The notes under the pieces were generated by a model. That model saw nothing but the letters and a program-made list of their open reading frames with translations, ran no database searches and was not told the origin of the DNA. Below are positions 3,220-12,700 of a DNA stretch of 64,000 nt, in pieces. The stretch is taken from the sequence record NC_106514.1; one strand, 5' to 3'. The position numbers and the translations under genes are program-made. This DNA comes from Escherichia phage vB_EcoS_ESCO40. Numbering within the stretch: the stretch's first letter is position 1; every line of letters begins with the position of its first letter.

Positions 3220-4059
3220 TTAAGAGGACATTTTAGCTTTAAGAGCTGGATGAGGATCGTACCCCTCTAAATGGAATGACCAAGCTGCCGTATTATTTTC
3301 TAGTAAGTCGTAAAGATCTACAAACTCTGGCATTACTAGAGTTGGCAGAGGGCGTGGCTTGCGTTTTACCTGTTCTTCTACCTGTTCCATGTGGTCATTA
3401 TAGATATGAGTATCACCGCCACTAAAGATAAGATAACGAGGTTTTAATCCTGTCAGTTTTGCTAATATATGCGTTAATAAAGCATAACTAGCAATATTGA
3501 AAGGTAAACCGAGGAAACAATCCACAGAGCGTTGTGTCCATTTAAGATCTAGGTATCCATCGTTACTTACATAGCACTGGAAGCCATAGTGACATGGTGG
3601 TAATGCCATTTTATCAAGTTCAGCTACGTTCCACGCAGAAACTAGGTGTCTACGACCATGTGGATTATTCTTGAGTCCCTCAATGAGTTCTAAAATCTGA
3701 TCTCGTCCGCCAAAGTTGCGCCATTGTTTACCATATACTGGTCCTAGATTACCATTGTCATAACCCATGCTTATAGCTTGGTCTTCATAATTTGGGGTCC
3801 AGATGGTCCACTGTCCTTCGTCACGACCAAATGTGAATACACGTAGATCATGAAGATTTGTGGAACCAGACAAGAACCATAAAAGTTCTCCTACTACTGA
3901 TTTCCAGGCCAGGCGTTTAGTAGTTACAGCCGGGAACCCTTCACGTAAATCGAACTTAGCATAGGAATCAAAAATTGAAACTGTGCCTGTTCCTGTACGG
4001 TCATTACGGGGTTCACCTAGTAAAATTACATCTGTCAAAATTTTTAAGTATTGTTGCAT
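3220..4059 (-). CDS. thyA: thymidylate synthase
   Basis: 279-aa ORF with LPPCHYGFQCYV catalytic-Cys region and typical ThyA N-terminus (RNDRTGTGT). Confidence 0.9.
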   Translation of the reverse strand: MQQYLKILTDVILLGEPRNDRTGTGTVSIFDSYAKFDLREGFPAVTTKRLAWKSVVGELLWFLSGSTNLHDLRVFTFGRDEGQWTIWTPNYEDQAISMGYDNGNLGPVYGKQWRNFGGRDQILELIEGLKNNPHGRRHLVSAWNVAELDKMALPPCHYGFQCYVSNDGYLDLKWTQRSVDCFLGLPFNIASYALLTHILAKLTGLKPRYLIFSGGDTHIYNDHMEQVEEQVKRKPRPLPTLVMPEFVDLYDLLENNTAAWSFHLEGYDPHPALKAKMSS

Positions 4060-4592
4060 TAATAAGTAACCAATTCCTGTACAAATCGCAGGCTGTTATC
4101 ACTGTTTGCGCCAACTGCATAGACTAATCGGGTGGATTCATAGTTATAATCCAGTATCATACTATCTAGGTGTATATCTGCCTCTAGCTTCTGTTCGCTA
4201 AAGATTGTAGATACAAAAGCACTTTCTATATGCCCATGTTGGTACATTTCTAGAAGAAGATTAGCTCCGCCTAGAACTACTGTTTGCTGATCTTTTAGAA
4301 AGGTAGGTAATGTATCACCTATCATTGATATGGGAGTGTAAATATCATGTGTAATATCGTCTGGCAATGGACGATCAGCACGAATAAATAGGTCAGAAGC
4401 TCCAATCATACGTTCCCTAACGGCATATGGAAGAGCTAAATAAGTACCAGCACCAATGATGATGTTATCTGGATTCAACACGTCCAGTTGAGAATAGAAA
4501 GCATCTAGTTCTTCTTTGAAGGAACCCCATGGAAGTTTACCACGGAGGCCGAACTCCCCATTCGGCCCAACTGCATATATTGCTGTAATCAT
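4059..4592 (-). CDS. frd: dihydrofolate reductase
   Basis: 177-aa ORF, N-terminus ITAIYAVGPNGEFGLRGKLPW typical of DHFR; start overlaps thyA stop. Confidence 0.8.
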   Translation of the reverse strand: MITAIYAVGPNGEFGLRGKLPWGSFKEELDAFYSQLDVLNPDNIIIGAGTYLALPYAVRERMIGASDLFIRADRPLPDDITHDIYTPISMIGDTLPTFLKDQQTVVLGGANLLLEMYQHGHIESAFVSTIFSEQKLEADIHLDSMILDYNYESTRLVYAVGANSDNSLRFVQELVTY

Positions 4593-5734: not shown

Positions 5735-5765
5735 TGATTTTCCTCTTTCTCACTATTTCAGGAAT

Positions 5766-5840: not shown

Positions 5841-8171
5841 TTAAATAGTACAACCACCGGATGCACAACCTGCTGCTTCTTCTCCAGCACCTCCACCATT
5901 TGCGGTATTGAAGTTAGCATAATACCAAGTTTTCCACCCATACTTAACAGCAGTCATGAAATCACGAACTACTACTGGGCCAGGAATAATTTCATTCTCA
6001 AACTTGGTGTAGTCATAGTACATATTCGTGCTGATAGACTGACTGAAGAATTTCTGCATAGTTGCTACCCATTTGATCCACTCGATACGATCTACATCAT
6101 AAGCCAATTTATAGCTCATTAACGTTTCCCAATCGGTTGCACCTGGAGCAATTGCAATTACTTTATTTACTGCACTACCTTTGATAGATACAATCTTACG
6201 AGGTGGTTCGATAGAGTTAGTAACACCTAACAGAACAGAAGAACTTTCTCCCGGCATCTGAGCAGTCAGAACAGAGTTACGCATACCATATTTCATAATA
6301 TCTGCACGCAGAGACTCCCAATCCATTTCTAGACCTACGGATACCAGTTCATCAACAGTTTTCTTGTACGTGTCGATTACCAGAATTCCTTTAGATGGTT
6401 TAGTACGATCAAACCACTCACATGCGCCCTGTTCTTTAGCCAGGCGTACGGAGGCTTTATGCAGGAAGTAAGATAGTTTTTCAGCCTCACGGTGGATCCA
6501 GTTACGAGCTTCAATACCTTCGTAAGCCAGACCTTCTGCTGCCATTGCACCTGCTGCGTTCATTAGTCCAATACCAACATTACGACGTTTCTTAGCCGTA
6601 TATTCCATAGTTGGGAACGGATAATCCTGAATTTCAATAATTGTATCAACGAATTTCAGAAGGATGTAGCAAGTTTTTTCCCACTCAGCCAGAGATTCCA
6701 TGCGTCCTAGTACAACACCACCTAAGTTGCACAGAGATACTTCACCAATATCCTCCGGCTTCATTTGATCAAGTTGTTCTTTTGTTTTATACAGTTCCGT
6801 GATATGATGGAACGGACGTGTAGGCTGAGTAATTTCAACACAAAGGTTTGTCATACGGATCGGATCAAGGAAGTTACCGTGACGATTAGATTCCCCGATG
6901 TGGTGAGCATACATACGTCCTGTTTCCATTCGGATACGTAGCCAAGTATCTAGGATTTCTTTTGCAGAGACTTTAGGAGCTGCTGGAACTGTTTTTCCTT
7001 CGTGGTCGATCTTTGTAAGAGATGCCACACGTTTCTCCGCTGCCACATAGATTTCTTCAAATTTAGCCTCGTCATCACTATAAAACGCTTCATGAACTTC
7101 TGGAGCATAGAAGTATGACATTAGCGTAATATCTTCATTTTTCAGATAACGTTTTAACAAAAGATTGTTGAAGCTCAGAGAATAATCCATCTTATCGATT
7201 TTATTCTCATCTGTAGCACGTTGCTGCTTAACCTGCATCAATTGAATGATTTCAGGGTCAAAGTATGGATAAGACACTGTAGCAGAACCACCACGAGTTT
7301 GCTGAGTATTGGCCTTTACTGAGCGGTCAATGTGTCGATAATATGGCAGTTTTCCGGAATGCGGGAATGCCCCATTTCGCACCGGATCAGCAATTGATCG
7401 GCTTTCAAGATGATACCCGATTCCCGCTCTGGCTGCGACCATTTTGAAGACGATGTGCTCGGCTGTGTCGATTGAATCCAATGTGTCAGTGGAATCCACG
7501 AGGCAACAACTAGCAAATCCACGATCACTAGAGCGCAAGCCAACCAATGGCGGCGTAGGAATGTTGATTTTGTGTAGCGACATTGCGTTGTAGAGGTCGA
7601 TTGCATCTAGAATTGTCCAATTAGGTTGAGATAACATCGCCATTGCCATACCCATATAGGCGAATTGCGGGGTTTCGTAAATTTCGCCAGTTGCGATATT
7701 ACGACGGGAATACTTATCAAAGAATTGTTTCAATCCTCCGCTAGTGAAAAGACGGTCGCGATCATGGTCGATAACCTGATTCAGAGCTTCAAATTGCTCA
7801 TCGGTAATCCATGCACTCATGTCTTCCCATGCACCTACACTAACCATATGATCGTGGAAGAAGCGTAGAGAAGGTGGTTCGAAGGAATCATAAAGGCGTT
7901 TACGCATCTGCGCAAGACGTAATTCCTTTGCTGGCACGTCGTATGCTGGATTATCTTTGATAAGACTTTCAGCAGCTTTAATTAAAGCATCCATCAGAGT
8001 GTCGGAATCTACAACCCCTTTAGGCAGAGTTTTTTGAGCAGCCATAGTAATGGCTGACCAACTTACATCAACTGTTTTGCAGCCATACTCTGCCCAACCA
8101 TTGAGTTTTTCAGGAGCAAAGTCTTCTACAGTACCGTCACGTTTAATTACTTTTTCAATGCGATGGCTCAT
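5841..8171 (-). CDS. nrdA: ribonucleotide reductase class Ia large subunit
   Basis: aligns by eye with E. coli NrdA from the ATP-cone (VIKRDG) to the C-terminal Cys pair; ATG at 8169-8171 with AAGGA site chosen over ORF-track start 8276. Confidence 0.9.
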   Translation of the reverse strand: MSHRIEKVIKRDGTVEDFAPEKLNGWAEYGCKTVDVSWSAITMAAQKTLPKGVVDSDTLMDALIKAAESLIKDNPAYDVPAKELRLAQMRKRLYDSFEPPSLRFFHDHMVSVGAWEDMSAWITDEQFEALNQVIDHDRDRLFTSGGLKQFFDKYSRRNIATGEIYETPQFAYMGMAMAMLSQPNWTILDAIDLYNAMSLHKINIPTPPLVGLRSSDRGFASCCLVDSTDTLDSIDTAEHIVFKMVAARAGIGYHLESRSIADPVRNGAFPHSGKLPYYRHIDRSVKANTQQTRGGSATVSYPYFDPEIIQLMQVKQQRATDENKIDKMDYSLSFNNLLLKRYLKNEDITLMSYFYAPEVHEAFYSDDEAKFEEIYVAAEKRVASLTKIDHEGKTVPAAPKVSAKEILDTWLRIRMETGRMYAHHIGESNRHGNFLDPIRMTNLCVEITQPTRPFHHITELYKTKEQLDQMKPEDIGEVSLCNLGGVVLGRMESLAEWEKTCYILLKFVDTIIEIQDYPFPTMEYTAKKRRNVGIGLMNAAGAMAAEGLAYEGIEARNWIHREAEKLSYFLHKASVRLAKEQGACEWFDRTKPSKGILVIDTYKKTVDELVSVGLEMDWESLRADIMKYGMRNSVLTAQMPGESSSVLLGVTNSIEPPRKIVSIKGSAVNKVIAIAPGATDWETLMSYKLAYDVDRIEWIKWVATMQKFFSQSISTNMYYDYTKFENEIIPGPVVVRDFMTAVKYGWKTWYYANFNTANGGGAGEEAAGCASGGCTI

Positions 8172-8315
8172 TTGGTTTTCCTTTTTATAGTTATCAGGAT
8201 TTAGGAAATAGTTTACTTTATTCTCAGTCATTTGGCAAATAAAATTTTCTGATAGAAAAGGCCCGAGTATTTTCATACCCAGGCCTTCTGTGTTGTCAGT
8301 CTAGTTTTTGGCCAC

Positions 8316-8513
8316 TTAAGTTCTCAGCAGAATATCTATTGAGGTACTTAGTTCATTATAATTGAAGGGCCGATTTGGATTTGAGGTTACAATTTTCCAC
8401 GCTAGGGTAGTCTTAGGACTTTCTTCCCCTTCCTTACGTGTAATCATATTAGCAGCACTCAGTGAAGTACGATGTATTTTAGTTTTACGGTGTAGATGTA
8501 CGACGTTTCCCAT
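8316..8513 (-). CDS. hypothetical small basic protein, translationally coupled to phoH
   Basis: 65-aa ORF starting 1 nt after the phoH stop, GGAAGG 8 nt upstream; the longer ORF-track version overlaps phoH. Confidence 0.3.
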   Translation of the reverse strand: MGNVVHLHRKTKIHRTSLSAANMITRKEGEESPKTTLAWKIVTSNPNRPFNYNELSTSIDILLRT

Positions 8514-8514
8514 A

Positions 8515-9267
8515 TTACACCTTCCCCATGTCTTTAAAAATATCATAGAATGCTTTAGACTCAACAGAACGAACGTTATCAATCAATTCGATCATTGAGA
8601 ATGGGGCATTTTCGTATTTCTCATAGACTTCCATAAGTAGTGCTAGACCTGAGTCACCTTTAATGTCTTTCTGAGCTATATCTCCGCAGATAATTAAACG
8701 GCAGTCTTGTCCTACACGAGTTAGGAGACAAACCATTGCCTCAACGGAAATATTCTGAGCTTCATCGACAATTACATAGGAGTTGTTGAAAGTTCTGCCA
8801 CGAGCATGTTCTATAGCCAAAAATTTAATTTTCTGACGTTCGACATATCCCTTATAGGCATGATCACCGATGGCCCATTTCATACCATCAGCTATTGGCT
8901 CTAACCAAGGCTCTAGCTTTTCCGCTAGATCACCAGGAAGCATACCAAGAGACTTACCTAGAGGTTCATTAGGACGTACGAGGATCACTTGCTCAATATC
9001 TGAGTGAATGTCTACGAGTTCCTGAGCTGCAAGAACAGACGGGATAAAGGTTTTACCAGTACCTGGCTCCCCGATACCCACAGTCACTGTGTTGTTCTTG
9101 ATCATATTGATATATGATTTTTGCTCGCGGTTTTTACCTACTAGGGATTTAGCAACTGGGTTAGCGTAATCATTAGAAAAATCAGCCTGAATTACGTTAT
9201 TCTCATATTTGTTGCCACGCTTTCTTGAACCATTGCGGTTCTCTCTTTTTTGACGTGCTTTTCCCAT
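8515..9267 (-). CDS. phoH: PhoH-like ATPase
   Basis: Walker A GEPGTGKTF and PhoH-like core; ATG at 9265-9267 with AGGAG 8 nt upstream preferred over GTG at 9276. Confidence 0.85.
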   Translation of the reverse strand: MGKARQKRENRNGSRKRGNKYENNVIQADFSNDYANPVAKSLVGKNREQKSYINMIKNNTVTVGIGEPGTGKTFIPSVLAAQELVDIHSDIEQVILVRPNEPLGKSLGMLPGDLAEKLEPWLEPIADGMKWAIGDHAYKGYVERQKIKFLAIEHARGRTFNNSYVIVDEAQNISVEAMVCLLTRVGQDCRLIICGDIAQKDIKGDSGLALLMEVYEKYENAPFSMIELIDNVRSVESKAFYDIFKDMGKV

Positions 9268-9343
9268 AAATAACACTCCTATAGTGTACTTCGCTTCTAA
9301 CAGAGGATCAACAAAGAGATCTTGTTTATCAACTTACAAATAT

Positions 9344-9372
9344 ATTATAACAAGGTTTACAGCAAAAAGCAA
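9344..9372 (-). promoter_or_regulatory. sigma70-type early promoter (TTGCTT-17-TATAAT) for phoH operon
   Basis: minus strand TTGCTT (9367-9372), TATAAT (9344-9349). Confidence 0.55.
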
Positions 9373-9544
9373 GTATAATTTTAAATAAACCTATGATATT
9401 GCTTTTAAGTAAAAAATTTACTTGCTTATAAAGGTAGAAATATGATACTAGATAATCATTTATTTATATGTAAAGATATTATGCTGTATAGCATCGATAA
9501 AAATTGATAAAAATCAAAAGTCAAATAGTATTAGAAAAATGTAG

Positions 9545-9573
9545 TTGACTTATGGGGTGGAATTGTGTATAAT
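9545..9573 (+). promoter_or_regulatory. sigma70-type promoter (TTGACT-17-TATAAT)
   Basis: TTGACT 9545-9550, TATAAT 9568-9573, followed by AAGGAG site and the 9595 start. Confidence 0.6.
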
Positions 9574-9594
9574 ATATGAATTAAGGAGAATTTA

Positions 9595-10266
9595 ATGGTA
9601 AGAAAGAAAATAACTACAGAAGATGTGAACTTAACACTTGCTCCCAGAGGAATAATTATGCTAAGCACGTATATATCAGCTAAATCCAATGCTATATTTA
9701 AGTGCTCTAATGGACATAGTTGGGAGGCTAGAGTAGATAATGTAAAAGGTGGGAGAGGTTGCCCTTATTGTGCTAGTCGTACTTTAGATCTTAAAGAGGT
9801 AAGTGAATCCTTAGCTGCTCGTGGAATAAAGATGGAAGGTAAATACATCAATTCTAAGAGTAAAATTATGTTCAGCTGTGAGAATAATCATAGGTGGGAG
9901 TCTACACTTGATAGTGTTAGAAACCATAGTTCTGGTTGTCCTATATGTTTATTAGAGAAGGATAATTATCCTACTAGCGTATATATTTTAATAAGTAATG
10001 TGGGAACCAAAATAGGAGTGTCTAGCAGAACTAAAGATAGACTCAGAGATATTAAAACTTCTTCTAACATACATGATTTAAAAATATTTAAGGAATATAG
10101 CTTTTCAGATAGATCAAAAGCTATGCGTATTGAAAGAGAGGCCCATTTACAGTTTAAGGAATATAATTGTCAGTACAAAGATTTTGATGGTGCTACAGAA
10201 TTTTTTAATATTGAGCCAGAAGTAGTAGCAAGGTTTATTGAGGAAATAATTAATGACAGAGAATGA
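9595..10266 (+). CDS. T5orf172 / GIY-YIG-like domain protein with two N-terminal zinc-ribbon repeats; putative homing-type endonuclease
   Basis: two repeats C-x-N-x-H-x-W-E...G-C-P-x-C (KCSNGHSWEARVDNVKGGRGCPYC, SCENNHRWESTLDSVRNHSSGCPIC); C-terminal VYILISNVGTKIGVSS...R..R pattern. Confidence 0.55.
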   Translation: MVRKKITTEDVNLTLAPRGIIMLSTYISAKSNAIFKCSNGHSWEARVDNVKGGRGCPYCASRTLDLKEVSESLAARGIKMEGKYINSKSKIMFSCENNHRWESTLDSVRNHSSGCPICLLEKDNYPTSVYILISNVGTKIGVSSRTKDRLRDIKTSSNIHDLKIFKEYSFSDRSKAMRIEREAHLQFKEYNCQYKDFDGATEFFNIEPEVVARFIEEIINDRE

Positions 10267-12079
10267 ATTAATTGAGAATTGCAAAGGTCTGCTCACTCTA
10301 ACTGCGGATAAGGACTTACAGCATAATAATGCTAATAAGCCTAGTGAGATGTTCCATACTCAAAGAGACTTATTAGCTGGGGAAATTAACAAGTATTTAG
10401 TATCGCAAGAATTACCTAAACACCTGTTAGACGCACATAATCTAGGTAAAATACACATTCATGACATGGACTACAGAGCACAAGGGTACACCAACTGTTG
10501 CTTAGTAGATCTAGGCGGTATGCTGAAAAATGGCACTAAAATTGGTAACGCAAATATTGAAACCCCTAAATCCATAACTACTGCATGCGCGATTACTGCT
10601 CAGATTATTGCTCAAGTATCGGGTGCTCAGTATGGTGGCACCTCTATTGATCGTATCGATGAGGTTTTAGCCCCCTATGTCAGAAAGTCTTATGATAAAC
10701 ACCTGGGTCGTGGGCTACGTTGGCTCAAGGATGAAAGAAAAGCTGCTGTGTATGCTACTGAGCTTACTGAAAAAGAGTGTTATGATGCATTCCAAGCCCT
10801 AGAGTATGAAACTAATTCATTATTTAACTCTAATGGGCAGACCCCTTTTGTTACGCTTGGCTTTGGATTAGGTCAAGAGTGGGAGGAAAGGATGATTCAG
10901 AAAGCCATCCTCCAAAATCGTATTAAAGGTTTAGGTGCTGCTGAGTCAACCCCTATCTTCCCTAAACTAGTATTCTCAGTTAAAGAAGGGTTAAATAAAA
11001 ATCCAGGTGATCCTAACTATGATATAAAACAGCTAGCACTTGAGTGTTCTGCTACTCGTATGTATCCAGACTATTTAAGTTACGAGAGAGTTGTAGCTGT
11101 TACTGGTGATTTTAAAGCCCCTATGGGTTGTCGTAGTTTTTTATCTGCTATCCCCTCTGGAGAAATTGCAGGGCGTAATAATTTAGGTGTTGTGTCTATC
11201 AATCTACCTATGGTTGCTGCTGAGGCAGATGGAGTTTTTGAAGATTTCTGGGATATTCTAGACAAATATGTGGATGAGGCTTTTGAAGCGCATGACTTCT
11301 TCTTAAACAGACTGAAGAAAGTTAAGGCTAAACAAGCCCCTATTCTTTATATGCACGGTGGTTTTGGTGTACGTTTAGAAGGGGAAGAATATGTATGGCC
11401 TATTTTTGAGGGTAGATCCTCTGTATCTCTTGGGTATATTGGGGTCTATGAGATGTGCCAAATAATGTTTAGTTTACCACAGACTCATAGGGACTGTATT
11501 GAATTTACAGAGGAAGTTCTCACTCACTTAAAAAATCGTTGCGAAGTTAAAGCTAATGAGACTAATCTTGGGTTTAGCTTGTATGCTACTCCTAGTGAGT
11601 CTCTGTGTAATCGCTTTAATAAATTACTGGAGCGTAGATTCCCAGAGTATTCTTGGTTAACAGACAAAGGCTATCTTACTAATAGTCACCATTTGGACGT
11701 AAGAGAGAAGGTAGCCCCAGATACTAAATTTGAGTACGAAGCTCATTTTACCAAAATAGCTAATGGGGGTAATATATCGTTTGTGGAATTACCACAAATG
11801 AAAAAATTCCATAAAGCTCTTGAATACGTAGTAGATAAGGGACTAGAGTGTAGCCATTATATCGGTGTTAATATACCGATTGACGAGTGTTTCAACTGCG
11901 GATATATGGGTGAATCTATTGCCTCTGAGCGTGGGTTTGTATGTCCAAGTTGTGGGTCTGAAGAAATAGAGGTTACACGTAGGGTTTGCGGGTACCTGGG
12001 ATCCCCGGGCAGTAGGCCTTTCAATTCTGGGAAACAAAAAGAAGTGCTTGGTAGAGTAAAACACTTAAATCTTAAGTAA
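10253..12079 (+). CDS. nrdD: anaerobic ribonucleoside-triphosphate reductase (class III)
   Basis: aligns by eye with E. coli NrdD including the C-terminal zinc site (CFNCG...CPSCG) and glycyl-radical motif RVCGYLGS; no N-terminal ATP cone. Confidence 0.9.
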   Translation: MTENELIENCKGLLTLTADKDLQHNNANKPSEMFHTQRDLLAGEINKYLVSQELPKHLLDAHNLGKIHIHDMDYRAQGYTNCCLVDLGGMLKNGTKIGNANIETPKSITTACAITAQIIAQVSGAQYGGTSIDRIDEVLAPYVRKSYDKHLGRGLRWLKDERKAAVYATELTEKECYDAFQALEYETNSLFNSNGQTPFVTLGFGLGQEWEERMIQKAILQNRIKGLGAAESTPIFPKLVFSVKEGLNKNPGDPNYDIKQLALECSATRMYPDYLSYERVVAVTGDFKAPMGCRSFLSAIPSGEIAGRNNLGVVSINLPMVAAEADGVFEDFWDILDKYVDEAFEAHDFFLNRLKKVKAKQAPILYMHGGFGVRLEGEEYVWPIFEGRSSVSLGYIGVYEMCQIMFSLPQTHRDCIEFTEEVLTHLKNRCEVKANETNLGFSLYATPSESLCNRFNKLLERRFPEYSWLTDKGYLTNSHHLDVREKVAPDTKFEYEAHFTKIANGGNISFVELPQMKKFHKALEYVVDKGLECSHYIGVNIPIDECFNCGYMGESIASERGFVCPSCGSEEIEVTRRVCGYLGSPGSRPFNSGKQKEVLGRVKHLNLK

Positions 12080-12086
12080 GCTAATC

Positions 12087-12119
12087 AGCCAGGTTGCTAG
12101 TCGACCTGGCTTTTATTTT
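12087..12119 (+). terminator. rho-independent terminator after nrdD
   Basis: AGCCAGGT / ACCTGGCT 8-bp stem followed by TTTTATTTTA. Confidence 0.65.
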
Positions 12120-12121
12120 AT

Positions 12122-12150
12122 TTGCTTTCAGCCAAAAATTTATATATAAT
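12122..12150 (+). promoter_or_regulatory. sigma70-type early promoter (TTGCTT-17-TATAAT) with CATAAATTTGAGAGG leader
   Basis: TTGCTT 12122-12127, TATAAT 12145-12150, then AGATTTATAAATTTGAGAGGAG. Confidence 0.65.
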
Positions 12151-12178
12151 AGATTTATAAATTTGAGAGGAGAAGACT

Positions 12179-12460
12179 ATGAGCGAATTGCTTCCTAAAG
12201 TAGATGTTTCTCATCTTGGAGAGCCTAGTGAAGAACGTAAGGCTCTTGATTGGCTAGGTTACTTTGATTATCGTCGTGTTGTTGCAACATGGAATGATAA
12301 GAAAGTTAAGAAGTTTCGGGTACATTATGTAGGTAAAGACAAGTGGCTCTGGATTGATTATGAGGAATCGAAGGGGTCTACTAAGGCTGTGAAAATTTAT
12401 TGTATGTATGGGTATTATTATGCTCACTGTGATAAGAATGAATTTACAGTACAGAACTAA
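12179..12460 (+). CDS. hypothetical protein
   Basis: 93-aa ORF with GAGGAG site and own promoter. Confidence 0.55.
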   Translation: MSELLPKVDVSHLGEPSEERKALDWLGYFDYRRVVATWNDKKVKKFRVHYVGKDKWLWIDYEESKGSTKAVKIYCMYGYYYAHCDKNEFTVQN

Positions 12461-12469
12461 GGAACAAGA

Positions 12470-12700
12470 ATGAAAGACGTAAAACATCTTAAATATCGCT
12501 TAATCTATAATGGACGTATGGAAACTGAGGAGCTAGCTCAATTAGCTACTAACTCTAATGAGGTTATGGTGCGTGCGCTAGCAATTGAAAAGTTGCGTGC
12601 TTCTTATGAAAGTCGTATTATGCGACTGGAGGAAACCCTTTATGGACTTCTTGAATCAGAGGCTAAAAGTAACCCAGAGGATGGGCCTTCTAAGCAATAG
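12470..12700 (+). CDS. hypothetical protein
   Basis: 76-aa ORF with AAGGAA site, tightly packed after preceding gene. Confidence 0.5.
   Translation: MKDVKHLKYRLIYNGRMETEELAQLATNSNEVMVRALAIEKLRASYESRIMRLEETLYGLLESEAKSNPEDGPSKQ

Follow-up and report, generated by a model that had tools for sequence, protein, structure and literature searches.

The window analysed here is the whole 64,000-nt stretch of Escherichia phage vB_EcoS_ESCO40 DNA, which is T5-like (Markadamsvirinae) and, over the 3 kb around the locus under study, 97.5% identical to Escherichia phage vB_EcoS_VAH1. Between the spacer that follows phoH and the anaerobic ribonucleotide reductase gene nrdD, an open reading frame (hereafter the ORF) was confirmed on the plus strand at 9595–10266, with an ATG start and 223 encoded amino acids. 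At the G+C content of the ORF, which is 33% against 39–41% in its neighbours, the chance of a 223-codon open frame is about 3e-8. The start of nrdD at position 10253 makes the overlap between the two genes exactly 14 nt, as the original prediction had stated. VAH1 carries a gene that is 99% identical to the ORF at the nucleotide level. A tblastn search of the whole 64-kb window with the ORF protein returned no paralogue, so that no local gene family was available for comparison. The features of the locus are as follows.

9277–9461, no strand assigned: spacer separating phoH from the cassette, with homologues throughout the T5-like phages
9462–9544, plus strand: left end of the variable cassette, including an A-rich stretch upstream of the promoter
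9545–9573, plus strand: predicted sigma-70 promoter, TTGACT–17 nt–TATAAT, 11 of 12 positions matched
9583–9588, plus strand: Shine-Dalgarno sequence AAGGAG of the ORF, 6 nt before its ATG, assigned from the sequence
9595–10266, plus strand: very probable homing endonuclease gene of the T5orf172 family (allele a), 223 aa
9604–9771, plus strand: zinc-finger module 1, aa 4–59, probable ligands C37, H41, C56 and C59, Pfam DUF4379/CapR
9778–9948, plus strand: zinc-finger module 2, aa 62–118, probable ligands C95, H99, C115 and C118, also with Pfam matches
9970–10257, plus strand: T5orf172/GIY-YIG-fold nuclease domain, aa 126–221
10162–10256, plus strand: 3' end of the ORF, about 88% identical to allele b and retained in all decayed remnants
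10253–12079, plus strand: nrdD, anaerobic ribonucleotide reductase, 608 aa, of the minority window-type lineage
12087–12111, plus strand: predicted intrinsic terminator closing the ORF–nrdD unit, with a terminator annotated at the equivalent place in VAH1

The N-terminal part of the protein consists of two homologous modules (aa 4–59 and aa 62–118), which are identical at 23 of 57 positions (40%) and give an internal-repeat alignment score of 126, compared with 22 ± 4.8 for shuffled sequences (z of about 22). Their motifs read C37-SNG-H41-SWE...G-C56-PY-C59 and C95-ENN-H99-RWE...G-C115-PI-C118, and residues C37, C56, C59, C95, C115 and C118 were invariant in an alignment of 50 full-length homologues. 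Pfam returned two matches to the DUF4379 treble-clef zinc finger (1.5e-14) and two stretches of CapR homology domain (2.5e-8; 34.4 bits against a cut-off of 24.2). Module 1 was modelled with a pLDDT of about 90, and a DUF4379 protein was also among the matches of the fold comparison, where it paired with the finger modules. These modules would constitute the DNA-binding part of the protein.

For the C-terminal part, a single-sequence, word-indexed protein search gave only six hits, four of them through the zinc fingers alone, and was unusable for modelling the nuclease domain. It was replaced by an alignment built on phage paralogues, with which more than 3,000 relatives were found. Pfam T5orf172 (PF10544, GIY-YIG clan) matched aa 128–218 at 3.2e-11, with 44.0 bits against a cut-off of 20 and coverage of profile positions 14–100 of 101; the sister model MUG113 matched at 9.3e-11 (42.6 bits against a cut-off of 22.3) and PHROG 681, annotated as endonuclease, at 2.7e-49. 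A search of the PDB sequences with the family profile yielded one marginal match, the GIY-YIG protein 1zg2 (E 0.041), and a comparison of folds was therefore needed. The AF2 model, with a pLDDT of 88 overall and 91–97 over most of the nuclease domain, places strands at 127–133, 138–143 and 163–170 and helices at 146–156 and 173–186, which is the three-stranded sheet with flanking helices (alpha/beta) by which the GIY-YIG fold is defined. I-TevI, UvrC, Eco29kI, EndoII, PD-T4-3 and UPF0213 were also matched by this domain in the fold comparison. Across the 50 homologues, Y130, K139, G141, R149, E180, H184, G199 and E202 were invariant. In the second motif, K-I-G stands in place of Y-I-G, a non-canonical catalytic centre that is nevertheless the norm in this family. 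Profile alignment to Odn (gp88) of phage ICP1 (hhalign, 92% probability) superposed E180 and R149 on E180 and R148 of Odn, respectively, and the E180A substitution in Odn eliminates cleavage both in vitro and in vivo (PMC8263062). On the strength of these sequence and model comparisons, the fold and the catalytic residues of the domain are established, and from them we infer nuclease activity. Both halves of the architecture that had been read from the letters alone, the two zinc-ribbon repeats with their motifs and the T5orf172/GIY-YIG-like C-terminal domain, were thus borne out, the former by the Pfam matches and the latter by Pfam scores above cut-off, the fold comparison and the Odn alignment. 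The ORF was intact in all five copies examined, with a dN/dS of 0.13–0.22 between diverged copies, and is under purifying selection; together with the intact catalytic residues, these values argue for a working enzyme.

The promoter at 9545–9573 is the best site within 9200–12300. Promoter-like sites are not enriched in that interval, with 6 found against 10.9 expected from shuffles, so the credibility of this one rests on the quality of its match and on positional homology: it aligns position for position with the annotated nrdD promoter of T5 (AY543070). Between it and nrdD, neither a terminator nor a further promoter matching at more than 9 of 12 positions was found, and the 3' end of the ORF contains both the Shine-Dalgarno sequence (GAGGA, 10240–10244) and the ATG of nrdD. 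The original prediction had assigned this promoter to the ORF as its own. The site itself stands, but not its privacy, since it is also the only strong promoter of nrdD; the assignment to the ORF alone was rejected, as the comparison of occupied and empty sites (see below) shows a cassette-borne promoter serving both genes. We accordingly describe it as a predicted strong, early-type promoter that, judging from the locus alignments, supplants the resident nrdD promoter and drives the ORF and nrdD as a single unit, given the absence of an intervening terminator or second strong promoter. The predicted co-transcription of nrdD with the ORF is probably accompanied by translational coupling.

Comparison of the region upstream of nrdD among T5-like genomes, which had been put forward together with the idea of a mobile nuclease, covered 50,697 phage records. 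Of these, 426–439 T5-like ones contain the spacer on the phoH side, and the states of the site were counted over 426.

Allele a upstream of the nrdD lineage of the window: 8 records
Allele a upstream of a T5-type nrdD: 11 records
Allele b (287 aa, three fingers, 45% identical, same position and same 14-nt overlap): 27 records
Allele b with an internal frame-breaking deletion, leaving a frameshifted stub (Kenya-K36 type): 8 records
Degenerate 3' stub of about 130 nt with stop codons (Gostya9, DT57C, DT571/2): 6 records
No match beyond the spacer: 366 of 426 records, among which T5 and smaug proved empty on inspection and SE24 holds another endonuclease gene

The ORF is therefore sporadically distributed among its T5-like relatives, as would be expected of a mobile endonuclease gene: about 86% of the records have no cassette, about 11% an intact allele (allele a totals 19 of about 430 T5-like records) and about 3% decayed remnants. 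The sites of Gostya9 and K36 had been candidates for empty sites, which was rejected because both hold remnants of allele b. The spacer of T5 itself is a plain one of 370 bp that contains the annotated nrdD promoter and no ORF, and SE24 (Epseptimavirus) carries at the site, on the opposite strand, a gene for a 163-aa HNH_3 (3e-13) plus AP2 endonuclease, so that three different endonuclease genes occupy the phoH–nrdD site.

The cassette was found in both Tequintavirus and Epseptimavirus, and in a form about 95% identical it precedes two nrdD lineages that share 57–60% amino acid identity. NrdD of the window is 57% identical to that of T5 and about 99% identical to those of Shivani and Gostya9, whereas the NrdD proteins of SA001 and YZU-L1, which lie behind the same cassette, are 90% identical to that of T5 and only 60% to that of the window. 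The window-type nrdD lineage is accompanied by the gene or a remnant in 49 of 49 records, a linkage which indicates that the distribution is in part due to vertical inheritance and decay, not to repeated invasion. The promoter and the final 100–190 nt of the gene persist in each of the 14 decayed copies, probably owing to the location of the promoter, ribosome-binding site and start codon of nrdD within the cassette; the need of nrdD for these expression signals would probably explain the retained 3' piece.

Members of the family also occur elsewhere in phage genomes, namely T5.154 between the terminase and portal genes of T5, a gene just downstream of nrdD in cott162, one near the ligase gene in smaug, and others among the head and neck genes of Kuttervirus and Limestonevirus. 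Such locations are typical of homing genes.

The distribution bears directly on the second option that had been raised for the ORF, namely that its product is a domesticated DNA-binding regulator that does not home and whose zinc fingers repress or tune the shared promoter and hence nrdD, after the model of CapR from PLE or of I-TevI autorepression. The position of the ORF between nrdD and its sole strong promoter would suit such a role, as would the CapR-homology domains that exceed the Pfam cut-off; CapR is documented as a repressor that descends from a T5orf172 endonuclease lineage (PMC8096241), and purifying selection is also compatible with a function that benefits the host genome. However, the protein has a complete nuclease domain with every invariant catalytic residue, so that the CapR-like combination of a lost nuclease domain and a fixed regulatory role was not found in the ORF. 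Moreover, the gene is dispensable, being absent from about 86% of the relatives, in which nrdD is expressed from a plain promoter; it has decayed repeatedly, and the cassette moves between backgrounds. In the locus alignments, viewed at the level of the junctions, the surroundings of the promoter showed no repeated motif resembling an operator. Because the catalytic residues are all kept and the cassette behaves as a mobile one, domestication is the less likely of the two options, and we regard it as highly unlikely as a full account, although a regulatory and a homing role need not exclude each other.

The alternative of a mobile nuclease gene is well supported by the junctions of the cassette, which comprises the promoter and the ORF and spans about 0.8 kb, from 9462 to about 10256. 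On the left, the alignments lose homology to T5, smaug and the allele-b genomes between 9461 and 9462, and the blastn match to T5 likewise has its last position at 9461. On the right, the boundary is set by identity profiles against SA001 and YZU-L1, in which about 95% similarity gives way to about 60% exactly at the ATG of nrdD. The same sharp boundaries recur in distant backgrounds. When the occupied site of YZU-L1 was aligned with the empty site of smaug, the flanks were 97–100% identical, including 100% identity in the adjacent phoH, and a block of about 0.9 kb was replaced: the promoter region and the first 14 nrdD codons of the empty allele (MNRNEELKYKGMQS..LIRNCK) are exchanged for the cassette and a shorter nrdD start (MNKDE..LIRNCK). 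Within the left spacer, the window and YZU-L1 have several variants in common, among them a CTT indel and AACAAGGTTTACAGC, for which T5 and smaug share the alternatives. This haplotype of about 190 bp co-varies with occupancy in the handful of genomes aligned (window, YZU-L1 and Shivani versus T5 and smaug), while Gostya9 and K36, which bear remnants, carry the spacer haplotype of empty sites. In these few genomes, the spacer haplotype may represent a co-conversion tract.

The same region is highly mosaic, with two nrdD lineages and variable small ORFs downstream, which raises the alternative that general recombination merely shuffles the cassette as a passive module, the nuclease being uninvolved and perhaps inactive on phage DNA. 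An exchange of alleles a and b, in particular, could proceed by ordinary recombination through the left spacer and the shared 3' end. Passive shuffling is hard to reconcile, though, with the selection on the ORF (dN/dS of 0.13–0.22) and its intact catalytic residues, with the presence of three endonuclease genes at one spot, with identical boundaries in distant backgrounds, or with the frequency of remnants, which is as found in a cycle of invasion, fixation and decay. As an account of the whole locus, we hold it to be very improbable.

We therefore assign the ORF, with considerable confidence, to the free-standing homing endonuclease genes of the T5orf172 (GIY-YIG) type. Sporadic presence, clean gain and loss, divergent backgrounds, a base composition foreign to that of the neighbouring genes, conserved catalytic residues and purifying selection all support the reading as a mobile nuclease that had originally been offered beside that of a regulator. 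The product would be a "beads on a string" enzyme, in which two treble-clef zinc-finger modules recognise DNA and the C-terminal GIY-YIG-fold domain cuts it. Upon co-infection with a cassette-free T5-like phage, the enzyme would cut the naive genome in or near the phoH–nrdD spacer or the 5' end of nrdD; the zinc fingers presumably bind near the promoter or the 5' end of nrdD, and since the insertion alters this sequence, carrier genomes would be immune. Recombinational repair from the carrier genome would then copy in the cassette together with flanking sequence. Such spread by cleavage and repair is suggested by analogy with the family and by the population pattern. Decay after fixation can be seen in other phages, whose remnants retain the 3' piece that nrdD needs, and the frequency of remnants fits the invade-fix-decay cycle typical of homing genes. 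Homing has not been experimentally verified for the T5orf172 genes of ICP1, for which only the nuclease activity of Odn has been shown (PMC10448857).

That activity suggests a further alternative, in which the ORF product is a nuclease of competition or defence that, like Odn, cuts the DNA of rival phages or satellites without promoting its own copying. Odn demonstrates that a T5orf172 nuclease is capable of this role, and transcription of the ORF from a predicted early-type promoter would be in keeping with it. Yet the pattern across genomes, in which one particular site is either occupied or empty, the junctions are precise and shared and the flanking haplotype is linked, is what homing produces, and the specificity of Odn comes from a target-derived RepA_N part, whereas the ORF has the standard zinc fingers of the putative homing family. 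We consider a purely defensive function scarcely probable, and exclusion of rival markers and homing are in any case not mutually exclusive.

If the ORF is taken as a homing endonuclease gene, the main value of the analysis lies in its correct annotation as a selfish endonuclease gene that stands outside nucleotide metabolism. Novelty is low, as the class has been published (Barth et al. 2023) and the gene is already annotated in GenBank, and current understanding is unchanged. Mildly new and specific to this locus are the carriage of the nrdD expression signals by the cassette, its occurrence with both nrdD lineages, the constant linkage of the minority nrdD lineage to the gene or a remnant (49 of 49), the junction exactly at the nrdD ATG and the invariable retention of the 3' remnant. 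The locus also illustrates how a cassette may come to provide the expression signals of the gene next to it. A more far-reaching proposal, which we put forward tentatively and regard as rather doubtful, is that the cassette took over nrdD expression, may also have brought in or fixed the alternative nrdD allele, and encodes a protein that might autoregulate the promoter as I-TevI does; if true, the locus would offer a concrete example of an endonuclease driving the replacement and "entrenchment" of a gene of an essential pathway. The locus further provides a natural series, with an empty site, two intact alleles (of two and three fingers), two kinds of remnant and an HNH-AP2 occupant, which would make it a convenient system for a first experimental test of T5orf172 homing.

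Among known systems, the closest is the family of putative T5orf172 homing endonucleases with repeated CapR/DUF723/DUF4379 zinc fingers, which are enriched in T5-like phages (PMC10448857). A ribonucleotide reductase gene is found in 33% of T5orf172 gene neighbourhoods (Barth, Dunham & Seed 2023, PMC10448857), and variable presence, deletions between repeats and domain swapping have been described for these genes (PMC10448857). The ORF shares with this family the N-terminal zinc-finger repeats followed by a C-terminal T5orf172 domain, the occurrence in T5-like phages beside a ribonucleotide reductase gene, the variable presence, the in-frame or internal deletions and the alleles with two versus three repeats. 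Nothing of substance differs, and the locus-specific details were not found in the papers searched; likewise, no description of the phoH–nrdD T5orf172 locus was found in the literature on homing endonucleases of T5-like phages or Tequintavirus and on nrdD or ribonucleotide reductase. In GenBank and RefSeq, the gene or its sister allele appears as "T5orf172 domain protein", "endonuclease", "GIY-YIG nuclease family protein" or "putative homing endonuclease", with VAH1_00110 as an example of the first, NR01 gp030 of the second and the SelmaRatti sister allele of the last.

With the Seg proteins of T4 and with I-TevI, the ORF product has in common a GIY-YIG catalytic domain joined to separate DNA-binding modules (a zinc finger in I-TevI) and an intergenic, intron-less location beside nucleotide-metabolism genes. 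That family spreads by cutting naive alleles with co-conversion of the flanks, and I-TevI represses its own promoter. The order of domains differs, I-TevI and the Seg proteins having the nuclease at the N-terminus and the ORF product at the C-terminus; the latter also has K-I-G instead of Y-I-G, no intron, and tandem treble-clef fingers in place of NUMOD or helix-turn-helix modules.

Odn, the only biochemically characterised T5orf172 nuclease (PMC8263062), has the same T5orf172 domain as the ORF product, with coincident Glu (E180 in both), Arg and His residues. It differs in being an anti-satellite weapon whose RepA_N DNA-binding part was taken from its satellite target, as opposed to two zinc-finger modules and insertion at a specific site. 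CapR of PLE, finally, has a zinc-finger module homologous to those of the ORF product (the Pfam CapR homology domain). It has been described as repressing transcription of the ICP1 capsid operon, binding DNA via four conserved cysteines and resembling ICP1 endonucleases in the DNA-binding domain, and no nuclease activity is reported in that description (PMC8096241). This description sets CapR apart from the ORF product, which keeps a complete nuclease domain.

The reductase gene cluster of the window also varies outside the endonuclease gene that precedes nrdD (positions 9595–10266). Relative to T5, the entire block at 9462–12478 constitutes a divergent mosaic segment, in which nrdD shares ~68% nucleotide and 57% amino-acid identity with its T5 counterpart, while the flanks on both sides are 91–96% identical. 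This nrdD lineage was found in only 49 records, and the endonuclease gene or its decayed remnant was present in 49/49. The further features of the window considered here are the following:

5759–5764, nrdB/nrdA junction without hegH, from comparison with T5 and SA001.
5841–8276, minus strand, nrdA, 811 aa, intein-free.
~8316–8513, minus strand, small ORF downstream of phoH, 65–73 aa in relatives.
12179–12460, plus strand, 93-aa ORF of variable presence, right after the nrdD terminator.

In T5 and SA001, nrdB and nrdA are separated by the HNH endonuclease gene hegH (P-TflVIII), which is missing from the window. The T5 stretch at 3563–4085 of locus L005 has no counterpart there, and the homology blocks lie just 4 bp apart. 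Within this cluster, hegH is a second endonuclease presence/absence polymorphism. A third type of variable selfish element in the cluster is the nrdA intein: the gene has the same length in the window as in T5, reaches 3,243 nt in Shivani, where it is annotated as "contains intein splice site", and extends to 3,462 nt in Kenya-K36.

The 93-aa ORF, for which no Pfam match was obtained, is common to the window, VAH1, Shivani, NR01 and smaug, and is missing or replaced in SA001, T5, Gostya9 and Kenya-K36. The small ORF downstream of phoH is labelled "tail length tape measure protein" in RefSeq records of relatives, which is probably a propagated mis-annotation, as its size and its position among nucleotide-metabolism genes make a tape measure implausible.

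As to host labels, OR848434.1 ("Listeria phage LM 4-14-1") and MG065692.1 ("Campylobacter phage C13") contain this T5-like locus, with identities of 98% and 92%, respectively. These labels appear to be wrong, or else T5-like phages of enterobacteria had contaminated the samples.

Other endonuclease genes were located in three T5-like phages (coordinates internal to each locus):

Salmonella phage SE24 (L017), 3957–4448, minus strand, HNH_3 + AP2 endonuclease gene, 163 aa, at the phoH–nrdD spot equivalent to window ~9462.
cott162 (Epseptimavirus; L009), 2001–2687, paralogue of the window's endonuclease, 43% identical, directly downstream of nrdD.
T5 (L008), 1842–2675, T5.154, the member of this endonuclease family in T5 itself, 36% identical, flanked by the genes for large terminase and portal.

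The SE24 gene occupies the same spot as the window's endonuclease gene on the opposite strand, and only a 47-aa fragment of it is annotated in its record, as "HNH endonuclease". Since the cott162 paralogue adjoins nrdD downstream, insertion sites are found at both ends of nrdD. T5.154 comprises DUF4379, CapR and T5orf172 domains, and is described in the T5 record only as [quoted passage not shown].
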